From Candidatus Fervidifonticultor secundus (GTDB lineage Bacteria; Sysuimicrobiota; Sysuimicrobiia; Sysuimicrobiales; Humicultoraceae): 64,000 nucleotides of DNA. Numbering within the stretch: the first letter of the stretch is position 1; each line of letters opens with the position of its first letter. The stretch covers positions 96,001 through 160,000 of the forward strand of contig JAVKIP010000004.1 of assembly GCA_031459385.1 (NCBI GenBank), given 5' to 3'. Shown in pieces: positions 55,278-64,000 of the stretch. Below the pieces are notes generated by a model. It saw only the letters and a list, made by a program, of their open reading frames with translations. It had not been told where the DNA came from and searched no databases. The position numbers and the translations under genes were made by a program.

Positions 55278-55363
55278 TGGTGCCGGGGGCGGGATTTGAA
55301 CCCGCACGGGGTTTCCCCCATCGGCTTTTGAGGCCGACGTGTCTGCGATTCCACCACCCCGGC
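55278..55363 (-). tRNA. tRNA-Leu(CAA)
   Basis: GCCGGGG/CCCCGGC acceptor stem plus encoded ACCA, anticodon arm TCGGC-CTCAAAA-GCCGA, long variable arm, GGTTCAAATCC T-arm. Confidence 0.96.
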
Positions 55364-55512: not shown

Positions 55513-58194
55513 ATGCGGCAGCCCCCGCCAGTGGTGCCCGTGAGTGGAACGCTCGTCCTGCTCGATACCAACGGCCTGATCTACCGGGCGTTCTACGCCC
55601 TCCCCTACCTGACCACGTCATCCGGGCGTCCCACGAACGCTGTCTACGGCCTGACGGCCATGGTCCTCAAGGTGCTGGAGGACGAGCGGCCCGATTACAT
55701 CGCCGCCGCGTTCGACCGGCCGGAACCGACCTTTCGGCACGAGCGGTACGAGGCCTACAAGGCGCACCGGGAGGCCATGCCCGACGACCTCCGGCCCCAG
55801 GTGGCCACCGCCAAACAGGTGCTCGAAGCGCTGAGGATCCCCATCGTCGAGGTGCCGGGGTACGAGGCCGACGACGTCATCGCCACGCTGGCGCGCCGCG
55901 CCGTGGCCGACGGCCTCGAGGTCCTGATCGTCAGCGGCGACCTCGACACGCTGCAGCTGGTGGACGGCCGGATCCGCGTCATGGTCACGAGCCGCGGGGT
56001 CACCGACACGGTGGTGTACGACGAGGCGCGCGTACGCCAGCGCTTCGGCTTCGCCCCGGCACGCCTGCCCGACTACAAGAGCCTGCGGGGCGACCCCAGC
56101 GACAACATCCCGGGGGTGCCGGGCGTCGGCGCGAAGACCGCCGCCGCCCTCATTCAGCAGTTCGATACCGTCGAGCAGCTCCTGGCGCGCCTGGCCGAAG
56201 TGCCGCCGAAGCTGCGGGAGCCGCTGGAGCGGGCGGCCGACCAGGTCCGGGAGAGCAAGGCGCTCGCGACGCTGGCGACAGACGTGCCCCTGGCGGTCGA
56301 CTGGGAGGCGCTGCGCGTTCGCGCCCCGGACTGGGCGAGGGTCGAGGCGCTCTTTTCCGAGCTCGAGTTCCGCGTCTTCCTGGAACGCCTGCGCGCCCGG
56401 GCAGAGGCGTCCGTGGCCCCCGGTGAGCCGGCGGTCGCCAGCGGGGCGCACACTGCGGTCGCCCCCGGCGAGGCCACCGCGGCCGCCAGCGCGGGCGACC
56501 TGGTGCGCCTGGCCCGAGCCGGCGGGCGCATCGGCGTCGCCTTCGCCCGCGGCGAGGGGCATCCACTGACGGCGCCGCTGCTGGCCGTCGGGGTGGCCTC
56601 GGCGGCCGGCGCGGCGTGGCTGGGGCTCGACGGCGACCGTCTCCCCCCGGAGATCGCGGCCGTGCTGGAGGATCCGACGGTGCGCAAGGTCAGCGCCGAC
56701 GTGAAGGGTGACCTGCTCACGCTCGAAGGCCGCGGCGTGCGCCCAGCCGGGTTCGACTTCGACGTGGGCATCGCCTCGTATCTCCTGAACCCCGGCAAGC
56801 GCACCCACACGCTGGCTACGGCGGCGCGTGAATTCCTCGGCCTCGACCTGGACGCGGACCGGGGGGGGCGGCCGGATGCCCTCGATGGCGTGTGGGCGGC
56901 CCGGGCGGCGGCAGCCCTGCTGCGTCTGCGCGAGGTCCTGGAGCCGCGCCTGGAAGAGCGGCAGCTGGACCGGCTGTTCGCGGAGGTGGAGCTGCCGCTG
57001 GCGGCTGTGCTGGCCGAGATGGAGCGTCACGGCGTCGCCGTCGATCTGCCGTACCTGGCTGCGCTGGGCGACGAGCTCGGCGCCCGCCTGGCAGCTGTGG
57101 AACGCGAGATCTATGCCCTGGTGGGCACCGAGTTCAACATCGGCTCGCCCCGGCAGCTGGCCTTCGTGCTGTTCGAGAAGCTCCAGTTGCCGCCGGTCAA
57201 GCGCACCAAGACCGGCTACTCCACCGACGCCGAGGTCCTGGAGGCGCTGGCGTCCCGACACGAGGTGGTGGCGAAGATCCTGGAGCACCGCGAGCTGGCC
57301 AAGCTCAAGTCCACCTATGTGGATGTCCTGCCGCGCCTGGCCGACGCGCGTACCGGCCGCGTCCACACCACCTTCAACCAGACCCTGGCAGCCACGGGCC
57401 GCGTGATCACGGAATCGCCCAACCTGCAGAACCTCCCCATCCGCACCGAGGAGGGCCGGAAGATCCGGCGGGCGATCATCGCCCCGGCGGGGATGGTCCT
57501 GCTCAGCGCCGACTACTCGCAGATCGACCTGCGGGTGCTGGCCCACGTCACCGGCGACCCCGGGCTGGTCGACGCCTTCGCCCGGGGCGACGACATCCAC
57601 GCGGTCATCGCGGCGGAGGTGTTCGGCGTCGCGCGTCAGGCCGTCACCCCGGAACTGCGCCGCCGGGCCAAGACGATCGTCTTCGGGGTCGCCTACGGCA
57701 TGAGCGAGCACGGCCTGGCTTTGCAGCTGGGGATCGACCGCGCGCAGGCCCGGGCGTTCATCGAGCGGTACTACGCCCGGTTCCCGGGCGTCCGTCAGTA
57801 CATGCAGCAGGTCGTCGAGCAGGCCCGGCGCGATGGCTTCGTGACCACCGTGCTCAACCGCCGGCGCTACCTGCCTGACCTGCGCAGCCGGAACCGTCAG
57901 GTCCGGGAGGCGGCGGAGCGGACAGCCATCAACACGCCGATCCAGGGCTCCAGCGCCGACATCATCAAGCTGGCGATGCTGGCCATCGCCCGCGAAGTGC
58001 CCCCGGCGCACCCCGGTGTGCGGATGACGCTGCAGATCCACGACGAGCTGCTCTTCGAGGTGCCCGACGGCGCGGAGGAGACCGTGGCGCGCCAGGTGGT
58101 GGCGCTCATGCAGCGCGCCTACCCGCTGCGGGTGCCGCTGGTGGCCGAGGCCAAAGCCGGGCCCAACTGGGCCGAGATGCGGCCCCTGCCGTGA
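55513..58194 (+). CDS. polA: DNA polymerase I
   Basis: 5' nuclease (YEADDVIATL, GDPSDNIPGV), TKTGYSTD, DYSQIDLR, AINTPIQGS.ADIIK, QIHDELLFE; start 55513 or 55540. Confidence 0.97.
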   Translation: MRQPPPVVPVSGTLVLLDTNGLIYRAFYALPYLTTSSGRPTNAVYGLTAMVLKVLEDERPDYIAAAFDRPEPTFRHERYEAYKAHREAMPDDLRPQVATAKQVLEALRIPIVEVPGYEADDVIATLARRAVADGLEVLIVSGDLDTLQLVDGRIRVMVTSRGVTDTVVYDEARVRQRFGFAPARLPDYKSLRGDPSDNIPGVPGVGAKTAAALIQQFDTVEQLLARLAEVPPKLREPLERAADQVRESKALATLATDVPLAVDWEALRVRAPDWARVEALFSELEFRVFLERLRARAEASVAPGEPAVASGAHTAVAPGEATAAASAGDLVRLARAGGRIGVAFARGEGHPLTAPLLAVGVASAAGAAWLGLDGDRLPPEIAAVLEDPTVRKVSADVKGDLLTLEGRGVRPAGFDFDVGIASYLLNPGKRTHTLATAAREFLGLDLDADRGGRPDALDGVWAARAAAALLRLREVLEPRLEERQLDRLFAEVELPLAAVLAEMERHGVAVDLPYLAALGDELGARLAAVEREIYALVGTEFNIGSPRQLAFVLFEKLQLPPVKRTKTGYSTDAEVLEALASRHEVVAKILEHRELAKLKSTYVDVLPRLADARTGRVHTTFNQTLAATGRVITESPNLQNLPIRTEEGRKIRRAIIAPAGMVLLSADYSQIDLRVLAHVTGDPGLVDAFARGDDIHAVIAAEVFGVARQAVTPELRRRAKTIVFGVAYGMSEHGLALQLGIDRAQARAFIERYYARFPGVRQYMQQVVEQARRDGFVTTVLNRRRYLPDLRSRNRQVREAAERTAINTPIQGSSADIIKLAMLAIAREVPPAHPGVRMTLQIHDELLFEVPDGAEETVARQVVALMQRAYPLRVPLVAEAKAGPNWAEMRPLP

Positions 58195-58240
58195 CGGGTC
58201 GCCGGCATGACGGGCGTGGGGTCATGCCCCACCCTGGGGC

Positions 58241-58873
58241 GTGAAGGTTATCGGCCTGACCGGGGGCATCGCCAGCGGCAAGACGCTGGTGGCCCGCATG
58301 CTGCGTGACCTGGGCGCCCACGTGATCGACGCCGATGTCCTGGCGCGCGAGGTCGTGGTCCCCGGCGCGCCCGCCTACCGCGAGGTGGTCGAGGCATTCG
58401 GCCCGGCGGTCGTCCGCCCCGACGGCACGCTGGACCGCGCCGCCCTGGCTGCCATGGTCTTCAGCGACCCCGAGGCCCGCGCGCGGTTGAACCGGATCAT
58501 CCATCCGCACGTGCGCCAGCGCATGGCCCAGGCGCTGGCCGACGCGGCGGCCGCCCACCCGCACGGGATTATTGTGCTGGTCATCCCGCTGCTGCTGGAC
58601 ACCGCGCCGGCCGACCTGTACCCTTTCGACGGCATCGTGGTCGTCTGGCTGGACCAGGCGGCACAGGAGGCGCGCCTGATGGCCCGCGACAGCCTGAGCC
58701 GCGAGGAGGCCCGGGCGCGGATCGCGGCCCAGCGGCCCCTGGCGGAGAAGCTGGCACAGGCGACCTGGGTGATCGACAACAGCGGCACGCCCCAGGAGAC
58801 CCGCCGCCAGGTGGAAGCCCTCTGGCGCCAGTGGCGCAGCGGAGCCTCCGAGGCACCCGCGCGCCAGCCCTGA
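58241..58873 (+). CDS. coaE: Dephospho-CoA kinase
   Basis: IGLTGGIASGKT, IDAD..AR, LNRIIHP, VIDNSG; polA-coaE synteny. Confidence 0.96.
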   Translation: MKVIGLTGGIASGKTLVARMLRDLGAHVIDADVLAREVVVPGAPAYREVVEAFGPAVVRPDGTLDRAALAAMVFSDPEARARLNRIIHPHVRQRMAQALADAAAAHPHGIIVLVIPLLLDTAPADLYPFDGIVVVWLDQAAQEARLMARDSLSREEARARIAAQRPLAEKLAQATWVIDNSGTPQETRRQVEALWRQWRSGASEAPARQP

Positions 58874-58903
58874 GGGGACCGGTGGAGCGCCGTACCGGCC
58901 CGC

Positions 58904-58912
58904 TGATATACT
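58904..58912 (+). promoter_or_regulatory. Extended -10 element giving a leaderless uvrB mRNA
   Basis: TG-A-TATACT followed after 6 nt by ATG at 58919; no SD. Confidence 0.65.
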
Positions 58913-58918
58913 GATAGT

Positions 58919-61900
58919 ATGCCCCCGTTTCAGATGGTCACCGACCTGCCGCCGCGCGGCGACCAGCCGCAGGCGATCGCCGGGCTGATCGAGAGCGTGC
59001 GCGCCGGTCACCGCTACACGACGCTGCTGGGGGTGACGGGATCCGGGAAGAGCGTCACCGCCGGCACGCCGGTCTTCTTGAAGCGCGGTAGCCGCCTCAC
59101 CCTGGAGACGATCGGAGAGGTCATCGACCGCGCCATGACGGCCCAGCCCGACGACGTGCGACGACAGGGGGACACCGAGATCCTCGCGCGGGTCGGGCCC
59201 GCGGATTACCTCGAAGCGCTCAGCTTCGACCCCGGCACCGGGACCGTCTCGTGGAAGCCCGTCCGCCAGCTTGTCCGACACCGCTCACCCGACGTCCTGT
59301 ACACCCTGTCAACGGGCTGCGGGCGGGAAGTGACCGTGACCGGCGATCACAACTTCTTCGTGCTGCGGCGCGGGCAGCTGCACCTGGTCCGGACCACGGA
59401 TATCCGGCCCGGAGACTTCCTCCCGATGCCGCGAGCCCTACCGGAGCCGGGCGAGTCCCTGAGGCACCTTCCGCTGATCGAGGCGCTCGGCCATGATCCC
59501 CGCGTCGACGCCACGGAGCCGCACTCCCACCAATGCCGGGAGCCGGCGGTGGTGGGCGGAGGTCCCACCGGCAGATCCAGCGCCCGTGGAGGCTCAAGCG
59601 GGCGGCGGTGGATGCCGCCTCCCCTTTCCCGTGGTGTCGTGGCCGCGACGGACGCACCCGCCGTGGGCGCGTGCGGCGGGACCCGGATACGGCGCTCCGG
59701 GATGCCCGCGTGGCTGCCGCTCGCGCCCGGGCTCCTGCGATTCATCGGTTACTACGTGGCTGCAGGGCAGGCACAGGACGCCTGCGTCACCATCTCATCG
59801 AGTGACAGGGAAGTCGTCGCAGATATCCTTGCTGTGGCGCGAGAACTCCCCGCGGGCGTCGATCATCCACCGGGGACGCGCGACGTGCAGATCCGTTCCA
59901 GCCTCTGGCGCGTGGTCTTCACGGCGTGGTGCGGATACGATGCGCGCTCCAAGCGACTTCCGCCGTTCTGGCCGCAGCTCTCCAACGAGCACCTGGCAGA
60001 GCTGCTGCGCGCGTACTTCAGCGCTGCCGGTGGTGTCGACGGCGATGAGGTCGCATGCACGACGGCAAGTCGCGAGCTTGCGTCGGATCTTTCCTATGCC
60101 CTCCTCCGCTTCGGCGTCGTGAGTCGGGTGCGGCCTCGTCCCCTGAAGCCTCCCCGCCGCGGGGAGGGGCGGACCGCCTGGCGCGTCGGCGTGTCGGGAC
60201 AGCCGTTCCTCCGGCGGTTCCATGACGCCATCGGCTTCGCGGTCCCGGAGAAGCGCGCGCGGCTTCGGGACCTTCTCGGGCGAAGCGACCCTGCCACGGG
60301 CGACGTCCCGCCTGTGCGCGGTGGCATGGGGCGTCACCGGCGGGCGCGCTGCGGACGCTCCCAGCATGAGGCCTGCGTCGGCCTGCCCGATCTCTGCTGG
60401 ACGCCCGTCCGGTCCGTCGCGACGGTGCCGGGCGAGGGCTTTGTCTACGACCTGGCCGTGCAGGACAACGAGACGTTCCTGGCGGGGTGGGGCGGCCTGT
60501 TTGTGCACAACACCTACACGGTGGCGCGCGCCATCGAGCACCTCCAGCGCCCCACGCTGGTGCTGGCGCACAACAAGACCCTGGCGGCGCAGCTCTACAG
60601 CGAGTTCCGGCAGTTCTTCCCGCACAACGCCGTGCGGTACTTCGTCTCCTACTACGACTACTATCAGCCCGAGGCGTACGTGCCCCAGACCGACCTGTAC
60701 ATCGCGAAGGACGCGTCCATCAACGACGAGATCGACCGGCTGCGCCATGCGGCCACCAAGGCGCTCATGGAGCGGCGGGACGTGATCGTGGTGGCCTCGG
60801 TATCGTGCATCTACGGCCTGGGCCGGCCCGAGGACTACAAAGAAGTGATGCTGCTCATCCGCCGCGGCGAGCGCCGGACGCGCGAGGAGATCATGCGGCG
60901 TCTGGTGGACATTCAGTACGAGCGCAACGACGTCGACTTTGCCCGCGGCAAGTTTCGCGTGCGCGGCGACGTCATTGAGGTCCACCCCGCCTACGAGGAT
61001 CGCGCCGTTCGCATCGACCTGTTCGGGGACGAGGTGGATCGCATCATCGAGCTGGACCCGTTGACAGGCGAGGTCCTCGAGGCCAAGGACGCCGTGGCCA
61101 TCTGGCCGGCCAGGCACTGGGTGACCACCGAGGAGCGCCTAGAGCGCGCGCTGGCGTCCATCGAGGCGGAGTTGCAGGAGCGCCTGGCCTGGTTCCGCAG
61201 CCAGGGCCGCCTGCTGGAGGCACAGCGCCTGGAGTTTCGCACCCGCTACGACATGGAGCTGCTGCGGGAGACCGGCACGTGCCCCGGCATCGAGAACTAC
61301 TCGCGGCACCTGGACGGGCGGGCCCCTGGGGAGCGCCCGGGGTGCCTGCTGGACTACTTCCCCCGGGACTTCCTGCTGGTGGTGGACGAGAGCCACGTGA
61401 CGATCCCGCAGGTGAAGGGGATGCTGGAAGGCGACCGGTCGCGCAAGCGCAACCTGGTGGAGTTCGGGTTCCGGCTGCCGTCGGCGTTCGACAACCGCCC
61501 GCTGTCGTGGGACGAGTTCGAGGCGCTGATCCCCCAGGCCATCTTCGTCTCGGCCACGCCGGGGCCGTTCGAGCTGGAAGTCAGCGCCCGGGTGGTCGAG
61601 CAGATCGTGCGGCCTACCGGGCTCGTCGACCCCCAGGTGGAGGTACGCCCGGCCCGGGGGCAGGTGGACGACCTGCTCGCCGAGGTCAAGGCACAGGTGG
61701 CGCGGGGGGAGCGCACGCTGATCACGACCCTCACCAAGCGCATGGCCGAGGACCTGACCGCGTACCTGCAGGAGCTGGGGTTCAAGGTCCACTACCTGCA
61801 CTCGGAGATCGACACCCTGCAGCGGGTGCAGATTCTTAAGGATCTGCGGCTGGGCACCTACGACGTGATCGTCGGCATCAACCTGCTGCGAGAGGGGTTG

Positions 61901-62524
61901 GACCTGCCCGAGGTCTCCCTGGTGGCCATTCTGGACGCGGACCGCGAGGGCTACCTGCGGTCAGAAACCGCCCTCATCCAGACCATGGGACGGGCGGCGC
62001 GCAACGTCTCCGGTCGGGTCATCCTCTATGCCGACGAGGCCACCGACTCGATGCGCCGTGCGATCGCCGAGACCAACCGCCGGCGCGAGATCCAGTTACA
62101 GTACAACGCCACCCACGGCATCACCCCCGCCACGATCGTCAAGCCCATCCGCGACATGATCGACATCGAGCAGGTGGCGGAGGAGCTGGATACCTACCGG
62201 CCTTCCACGGAGATCCTCACCGCCGAGGAGTTGATCCGCCTGGCCGAGACGCAGCGGGCCAAGGTCCCGTGGGATGTGGCGCGCCTGCTGATGCTGTCGC
62301 CGGCCGAACTGGAGCAGACGATCGAGGCCCTGGAGCGGGCCATGCGTCACGCCGCCGCCGAACTGCAGTTCGAAAAGGCCGCCGTCCTGCGCGACCAGAT
62401 CATGGAGCTGCGCAAGGGCCTGGGGGAGCCGTTTTTCGCCGCCGCCGGCGGGGGCCCCGACCCGGGCCGGCGAAGCCGCGGGCGCGCCCGCGGCTCCGCC
62501 GGCCGCCGCCGGCGCGGGCGGTAG
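58919..62524 (+). CDS. uvrB: Excinuclease ABC subunit B, intein-containing precursor (1201 aa; 714 aa after splicing)
   Basis: [15 protein letters not shown]|intein|[56 protein letters not shown] domain. Confidence 0.97.
59051..60511 (+). mobile_element. Intein (487 aa) with degenerate LAGLIDADG homing endonuclease
   Basis: Block [11 protein letters not shown], block [15 protein letters not shown], block [17 protein letters not shown], block G GLFVHN followed by extein Thr; removal restores GSGKT. Confidence 0.95.
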
Positions 62525-62538
62525 CAGCGGGGACGCCG

Positions 62539-64000
62539 ATGGCACGGGACCGCATCGTCGTGCGCGGTGCGCGCGAGCACAACCTCAAGAACATCACGGT
62601 GGAAATTCCGCGGGACCGGTTCGTGGTGCTTACCGGCATCTCGGGCTCGGGCAAGTCCTCTCTCGCCTTCGATACGATCTACGCCGAGGGCCAGCGCAAG
62701 TACGTGGAATCGCTGTCTGCGTACGCGCGCCAGTTCCTGGGGCTCATGGAGAAGCCCGACGTGGACGGCATCGACGGGCTATCGCCGGCGGTCTCCATCG
62801 ACCAGAAGGGCGCCCCCCGCAACCCGCGCTCGACCGTCGGGACCGTCACCGAGATCTACGACTACCTGCGGCTGCTGTACGCCAGGGTCGGGACGCCGCA
62901 CTGCCCCAAGTGCGGGCGGCCCATCACGCGGCAGAGCCGGGAACAGATCGTCGATCAGGTGCTCGCCCTGGGGGAGGGCGCCCGCGTACAGGTGCTGGGT
63001 CCGATCGTGCGGGGCCGCAAGGGCGAGTACCGCCAGCTCTTCGACGACCTGCGCCGGCAGGGCTTCGCCCGGGTGCGGGTCGACGGTCTGGTCTACGACC
63101 TCTCGGAGGAGATCCCGCTCGACAAGCACCGCAAACACACCATCGAGGTCGTCGTGGACCGCCTGGTGGTGCGGCCGGAGATCCGAGCGCGCCTGGCCGA
63201 CGCGGTGGAGACGGCGCTCAAGCTCGGCCAGGGCCTTGTCTTCGTCGACGTCGTGGGCGACGGCGACCATGCGCCGGCGGGGCCGGCGCGGTCGCGCCGA
63301 CCGCGGGCCGCGGCCGCGGGGAACGGGGTGCTGGTCTTCAGCCAGCAGTTCGCCTGCCCGGACCACGGGACGGTCCTGCCCGAGATCGAGCCGCGCATCT
63401 TCTCGTTCAACAGCCCCTACGGTGCGTGCCCGACGTGCACCGGGCTCGGCTTCAAGCAGGAGCTGGATCCGGACCTGGTCCTGGACTGGGACAAGAGCCT
63501 GCTGGACGGCGCGGTGCTGCCGTGGGCCGCCTCCACCAGCGACTACTACCAGGAGCTCCTGCAGTCGCTGGCCAGCCACTACCGGGTGGACATGAAGACG
63601 CCGGTGCGGAGGCTGCCGCGGGCGTTCGTGGACGTGCTGCTGCACGGCAGCGGCGAGCCGATCCGGATCCGGTACCACAACAAGTGGGGGGTGCTGCGCA
63701 CGTACGACGCCCCCTTCGAGGGAGTGCTCCCCCAGCTGGAGCGCCGCCATCGCGAGACCGACTCCGACTACGTGCGGGAGGAGATCGAGCAGTACATGAC
63801 CAGCGCGCCGTGCCCCGACTGCCGGGGGGCGCGGCTCAAGCCCGAGTCGCTCAGCGTCAAGGTCGGCGGCCTGACCATCGCGCAGCTCACGGCCCTGACG
63901 GTGCGGGGCGCCCTGGAGTTCTTCGAGGGGCTGCGCCTCTCGCCGCGCGAGCAGCTGATCGCAGCCCAGATCCTCAAGGAGATCCGGGCGCGCCTGGGCT
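62539..64000 (+). CDS. uvrA: Excinuclease ABC subunit A, 5' part (runs off window end)
   Basis: Read manually (not in ORF track): [76 protein letters not shown]. Confidence 0.97.

Follow-up and report, generated by a model that had tools for sequence, protein, structure and literature searches.

The closest solved match to the element described here is PI-PkoII (PI-TkoII), the intein of Thermococcus kodakarensis DNA polymerase (2cw7/2cw8), which combines a Hint splicing domain, a LAGLIDADG domain and an accessory domain placed before the C-terminal part of Hint. Its accessory domain is described as resembling an HTH, and an extra domain IV is present (PMC8966425). The same source describes TliVMA and PhoVMA (VMA-b; 7qss, 7qst), which interrupt the P-loop of the V-ATPase A subunit, have a HINT-HEN-ACD layout and share one site although the nuclease is active in one of them and inactive in the other; it gives the homing cycle as invasion, fixation, degeneration, deletion and loss. 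The Pyrococcus horikoshii RadA intein sits in the P-loop of a repair ATPase and has no working nuclease. With Cys1 and a length of about 170 aa it is a mini-intein; its Thr+1 has a dual role, and extein-dependent control by ssDNA and temperature has been measured for it (PMC5238726, PMC4513877). Inteins are also reported in UvrD, RecG, RecD and SNF2/HepA, P-loop DNA helicases of the same host category L as UvrB that include the nucleotide excision repair (NER) helicase UvrD (PMC4760082). UvrB does not appear as a host in the main text, the top-15 tables or two of the three supplement files of that survey, and the inteins treated in the text of PMC6390638 sit in GyrB and DnaE. The original prediction held that UvrB is not among the common intein hosts, and we found no description of a UvrB intein in the literature searched; an entry for this site may nonetheless exist in InBase or in subscription journals.

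We analysed a window of 64,000 nucleotides, which contains a uvrB precursor ORF of 1201 aa on the forward strand (58919..62524) that scores above the cut-off of both UvrB equivalog models. The translated 44-aa N-extein (58919..59050) ends in the Walker A sequence GVTGSGK, with the Lys codon at 59048-59050. Directly after it, positions 59051..60511 of the same strand translate to exactly 487 aa, beginning S-V-T and ending F-V-H-N (precursor residues 45-531). The 670-aa C-extein (60512..62524, forward) then resumes with T-Y-T, and its alignment to solved UvrB chains of the Bacillus type begins at residue 46, immediately after Walker A Lys45, so that Thr+1 is the equivalent of Walker A Thr46. Empty uvrB alleles read GVTGSGK-TYT, and the intein is thus an in-frame insertion that splits a conserved motif. 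The genome has one uvrB match (single-copy). The gene stands in the order polA-coaE-uvrB-uvrA, all on the forward strand, with polA and coaE (dephospho-CoA kinase) at 55513..58873, uvrA at 62539..64000 running off the window, and uvrC just past the window on the same contig. A tRNA-Leu(CAA) lies just upstream of polA on the reverse strand (55278-55363). A promoter and terminator scan of 58700-59100 found none.

Both intein junctions are spanned by contigs from three runs of one study, with 0-3 differing letters; these three runs exclude a possible source run. Since independent-run contigs cross both junctions, the intein is not an assembly artefact. Five runs contain the stretch, all hot-spring metagenomes from two studies, one of them possibly the source and one with a small share only. 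This bears out the thermophile setting that had been proposed.

The residues needed for splicing are all present: Ser1, Thr97 and His100 in block B, Asp467 in block F, His486-Asn487 at the end, and Thr+1. Pfam Intein_splicing (PF14890) matches the intein with E 6e-16 and 59 bits (cut-off 35.8), and the models of the intein N- and C-termini, TIGR01445 and TIGR01443, also match above cut-off. LAGLIDADG_3 (PF14528) matches with E 4.5e-15. Prediction from the single sequence gave a pLDDT of 37, and we used instead a model built on a 73-sequence alignment (pLDDT 86.6), in which confidence is low only at residues ~161-214 and 421-442 and in which two LAGLIDADG helices are predicted at residues 226-238 and 312-326. 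Judged by the split motif, the splicing residues and the Hint profile and fold, the element would be a class 1 intein, and it likely splices itself out. Translation, profiles and residues therefore agree with the original prediction that UvrB is divided at GVTGSGK|T by a 487-aa intein with intact splicing blocks.

When the intein model was compared with solved structures, Foldseek ranked PI-PkoII first (2cw7; E 2.4e-31, TM 0.70, 22% identity), and PI-PkoII was also the best solved match of the family profile (E 1.5e-56). The two share the order Hint, LAGLIDADG, accessory domain before the C-terminal Hint, but PI-PkoII has an archaeal polymerase as host whereas UvrB offers the P-loop of a bacterial SF2 helicase, and in this UvrB intein both catalytic acids are gone and the accessory domain is largely missing. 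The TliVMA and PhoVMA structures took ranks 2, 3 and 5 (15-17% identity); they resemble the UvrB intein in P-loop site and layout and differ in host, in site and in being archaeal. The RadA intein shares a repair-ATPase P-loop, a dual-role Thr+1 and the lack of a working nuclease with the UvrB intein; the latter, however, has Ser1 and 487 aa and is 15-16% identical to it over Hint, and control can be proposed only by analogy. The archaeal look that had been noted reflects deep kinship to PI-PkoII. It holds for the architecture and the best solved match but not for acquisition directly from archaea, since the nearest relatives, at 48-56% identity, are bacterial UvrB inteins. A direct archaeal origin was considered and set aside for the same reason: the best representative matches are UvrB inteins, and the UvrB junction occurs in 35 of 149 new rows of representative matches, most of the highest-ranking ones among them.

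Searching with the intein region returned 115 protein matches, and in 110 of these Ser immediately follows the Walker A motif of UvrB; the remainder are three UvrB carriers without an N-terminus and two other hosts. One of the matches, P0003, is named in its source 'excinuclease UvrABC helicase subunit UvrB/intein/homing endonuclease'. A junction-pattern search of GTDB gave at least 119 loci, and among the matches listed 117 were UvrB (114 called by script, 3 by eye), one was probably frameshifted and one a chance match. The matches listed come from Patescibacteria, Chloroflexota, Deinococcota, Armatimonadota, Abditibacteriota, Cyanobacteriota, Aquificota, Bacteroidota, Pseudomonadota, Planctomycetota and others, and only one listed UvrB carrier bears an archaeal label (P0025, Micrarchaeota). 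With well over 100 UvrB inteins at the same site, the rarity claimed for this one disappears. The UvrB Walker-A family is widespread in genome data, at a host site that seems little described. What is new here is a degenerate allele of a large intein family at the UvrB Walker A motif, a host site that we did not find described.

We pooled 186 complete inteins (109 from the protein search, 72 from GTDB, 5 from this class), of which 175 were unique; P0036 (C-end unparsed), L086 and loci without an N-end were left out. L086 is a 291-aa member that has lost the whole nuclease and kept the HTH, the reverse of the loss seen in the present copy. Ser1, the block B Thr and His and the block F Asp are present in 175/175. 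The His-Asn/Thr end was required by our extraction, and where it was not required, in the parsed rows of the protein search, His-Asn was found in 100/100. Both catalytic acids are kept in 155/175 and the HTH region in 171/175, which suggests that most of the family is competent for mobility. The present intein is nested in a well-supported clade of UvrB Walker-A inteins. The Ser/Thr nucleophile pair had been read as a sign of a retained element. The comparison does not support that reading, because Ser1 occurs in every member, including the 155 whose catalytic acids are both intact, and Thr+1 belongs to the Walker A motif of UvrB itself.

The domains of this copy have fared very differently. 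We counted a column as conserved when at least 80% of the 154 intact members agree in it. The N-terminal Hint region (residues 1-128, 59051..59434), which carries Ser1 and Thr97/His100, keeps 21/21 conserved columns, and the C-terminal Hint region (residues 446-487, 60386..60511), with Asp467 and His486-Asn487, keeps 16/16, giving 37/37 for the splicing core. Between these, on the same forward strand, lies an eroded linker subdomain (residues 129-220, 59435..59710) that is rich in Gly, Ala, Arg and Pro, is modelled with low confidence, and matches the clade consensus at 38%, versus 48-81% in eight catalytically intact reference members. It is followed by a full-length LAGLIDADG domain (residues 221-413, 59711..60289), predicted to be inactive, and by a 32-aa remnant of an XRE-type HTH accessory domain (60290..60385). 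The family profile matches XRE regulators at positions ~432-487, and the HTH domain is about 83 aa long in intact relatives. Only 4/13 conserved columns of the HTH region are kept here, and the absence of this family trait before the C-terminal Hint is a derived loss that the original prediction had not mentioned. Using nine relatives in tblastn against the intein DNA, we found no convincing match to out-of-frame HTH or linker remnants among those listed (off-frame E at least 0.016). The pattern suggests a splicing core under constraint while the parts that serve mobility decay.

In the nuclease, the block C Glu is replaced by Ala238 (GCA, 59762-59764) and the block E Asp by Ala326 (GCC, 60026-60028), each one base away from an acidic codon; the block D Lys301 is kept. 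These columns hold E in 160/175 and D in 157/175 family members. Neither LAGLIDADG helix thus ends in the acid expected of an active homing endonuclease, in accord with the prediction of a dead endonuclease. The rest of the domain is little changed. It is gap-free, it matches the clade consensus at 70%, like the intact G009 and P0001 (69-70%), and it keeps 36/41 conserved columns, against a mean of 38.3 in intact members. A full-length, consensus-like LAGLIDADG domain means that decay has so far been selective and not general. That both catalytic acids are among only 5 changed columns of 41 has P = 0.012 if changes fall at random. Once one catalytic residue has been hit, the chance of finding the second among the other four changes is 0.1, so selective disarming of the nuclease is not established. 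The dead nuclease had further been taken as a sign of domestication, and here the family gives a different picture: 20/175 members are without one or both acids and are scattered over the tree, the FtsH intein of the same genome also lacks the block E Asp, and dead copies require 13 changes of state on a tree of 105 rows, the most reduced stages being 387-413 aa long. The sister copies G077, P0057 and P0015 carry partial deletions of the nuclease domain.

Of the 94 genomes in the class, 86 gave a uvrB match, and in 84 the match extends over the site. The site is interrupted in 5/84 (this genome, G000, and G009, G011, G076 and G077) and uninterrupted in 79/84. Both genus mates, G001 and G002, have an empty site although their exteins are 94% identical to those of G000; the three group together on the extein tree (support 98) with no long branch. 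On an IQ-TREE analysis of 22 rows picked from the 175, the intein falls in a five-member group (92/94) with P0001, which is intact, P0057, G076 and G077. The order within this group is not resolved. The exteins of the other four lie with family f4, apart from the extein group of G000. Constraining the intein to group with carriers nearer its own extein group was rejected (p-AU 0.023), a modest result since the group was named after the trees had been seen; in addition, the branches of several rows are long or of unusual composition. FastTree had placed the intein as direct sister of G076 and G077. This was not recovered by IQ-TREE, and we therefore do not claim that it shares its HTH deletion with those two. 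Carriers are scattered on the extein tree, with 9 changes among 63 rows in a set enriched for carriers.

One pair of genomes in the class differs at the site with little other divergence. G011 carries the intein (L007/L016) and G013 is empty (L030), with exteins 99.1% identical. Just 5' of the site 21/30 bases are identical, whereas the other 23 windows have 27-30/30. This dip is co-conversion-like, as homing would leave it. No clear dip was found in G000 against G001 and G002, where the junction has 23-25/30 identical bases versus 23-29 elsewhere. The HTH is lost in 4/5 class carriers, the only four such cases among the 175, and the remnants differ; in G011 both catalytic acids are kept and the HTH is cleanly deleted. 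HTH loss confined to this class hints at long retention in the lineage, and a loss in the common ancestor of G001 and G002 accounts for the empty sites of these two no less well than a gain in G000. Several stages of the homing cycle are found together in the class: intact copies, copies without the HTH, copies with a dead nuclease, partly deleted copies and empty sites.

Three inteins were found in this genome by TIGR01445, in UvrB, DnaB and FtsH. The FtsH intein (L015:444-3005, G000:C27) follows EMFVGVGA, is 445 aa long and has the form Ser1...His-Asn|Ser; it shows a distant relationship to the one in UvrB (E 4e-16) and has His in block E where three relatives have Asp. In DnaB (L001:763-3147, G000:C7) the intein follows Walker A and has the form Cys1...His-Asn|Thr; it matches LAGLIDADG weakly, and by eye it has a degraded look. 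G001, G002, G009, G011 and G013 have 1-5 intein N-terminal matches each, in differing ORFs, which indicates that intein content turns over within this family.

We propose, with a probability of about 0.82, that this is a class 1 intein of the widespread UvrB Walker-A family that homed in from another bacterium, has since lost its nuclease, and now remains as an unregulated self-splicing passenger. From the comparisons above we infer that it splices, that the nuclease is inactive and that it arrived by homing. Class 1 splicing proceeds by an acyl shift at residue 1, attack by the +1 residue and cyclisation of the terminal Asn. Here Ser1 would make the N-O acyl shift at Lys44, aided by the block B Thr and His, UvrB's own Walker A Thr would then attack, Asn487 would cyclise with the help of His486 and Asp467, and ligation would restore GVTGSGK-T. 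In terms of the homing cycle, the element would have reached the degeneration phase. It probably remains in place because the single uvrB needs an intact splicing core to work and because it can be removed only by precise deletion or by conversion by an empty allele.

The original prediction had instead raised a switch on NER. On that reading, contacts between extein and intein would keep UvrB as a precursor without ATPase activity, and splicing would be set off by ssDNA, damaged DNA, the loading of UvrA, or heat. Damage-gated splicing, if true, would put a core repair pathway under post-translational control. The geometry is that of the RadA intein: a P-loop site in a repair ATPase and a Thr+1 that serves as nucleophile and Mg-ATP ligand (PMC5238726). 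In UvrB the Walker A substitution K45A abolishes the ATPase (PMC3025350), so an unspliced precursor would be inactive. The single copy of uvrB, the hot-spring origin of the runs that contain the stretch and the persistence of the intein without a nuclease, as in the RadA mini-intein (PMC4513877), also fit. However, each trait put forward as a sign of retention either occurs throughout the family or comes from the host, most members of the family seem to be mobile, and homing into conserved sequence explains the P-loop preference as well (PMC4513877). According to PMC11409957, a study of 2024, earlier work offered no in vivo evidence for regulatory excision in native hosts. We see no sequence feature here that indicates a sensor. 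The patchy distribution, with an uninterrupted site in 79/84 class relatives including both genus mates, argues against such a switch being needed; lineage-wide retention, which we would look for in a useful regulator, is absent when 5 of 84 genomes carry the intein. We therefore regard a conditional switch, which rests on analogy, as unlikely, and we are just as doubtful of its wider form, in which UvrB inteins would be a family of splicing-gated NER switches and the hot-spring lineage, with the HTH shed in 4/5 carriers and several nucleases dead, would show their domestication. Patchy presence and turnover favour the homing cycle over a switch.

Two further explanations attach to the state of the intein's middle. 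The folded LAGLIDADG domain might have been selectively disarmed and retained for binding DNA, so as to tether the precursor or the excised intein to DNA or to sense DNA for either of them. Its freedom from deletions, its high-confidence predicted structure and the loss of both catalytic acids among so few changed columns would suit such a role, but the HTH, itself DNA-binding, has been deleted, the linker is eroded and sister copies have deleted parts of the same nuclease domain. Core residues would be kept in any case, since a misfolded insert could hinder splicing, and we consider a retained binding module very improbable. Poor or lost splicing, which would leave uvrB effectively inactive, might be suspected from the degraded middle and the segments modelled with low confidence; it is hard to reconcile with the complete set of conserved Hint columns, with an open ORF whose exteins remain 94% identical to intact genus mates and show no long branch, or with the adjacent uvrA and uvrC, and we give it scarcely any credence.

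Outside the class, uvrB is split at the same Walker A position in 16 of 109 genomes of the genus Deinococcus with a match (111 searched), the criterion being a break at profile position 41-42 within an ORF of at least about 1200 aa. The named loci L120 (Deinococcus murrayi), L065, L114, L067 and L095 keep both catalytic acids and the HTH. These carriers include named cultured strains, with empty congeners as controls, so the question of regulation versus selfishness in a P-loop intein is answerable for NER.

Among the joints listed from the runs, none showed a near-identical empty uvrB allele from the same population, though rare variants are lost from contigs; listed joints across an empty site carried other letters, probably from other organisms. 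No RNA run was among the listed runs that contain the stretch. In run X3, record 10 is a deeper-covered contig that aligns at window positions 60443-60663 with 33 differences in 221 bases. This contig comes from another organism and matches the intein C-terminus together with the start of UvrB. At 33/221 differences, another carrier of a UvrB intein likely shares the sample.
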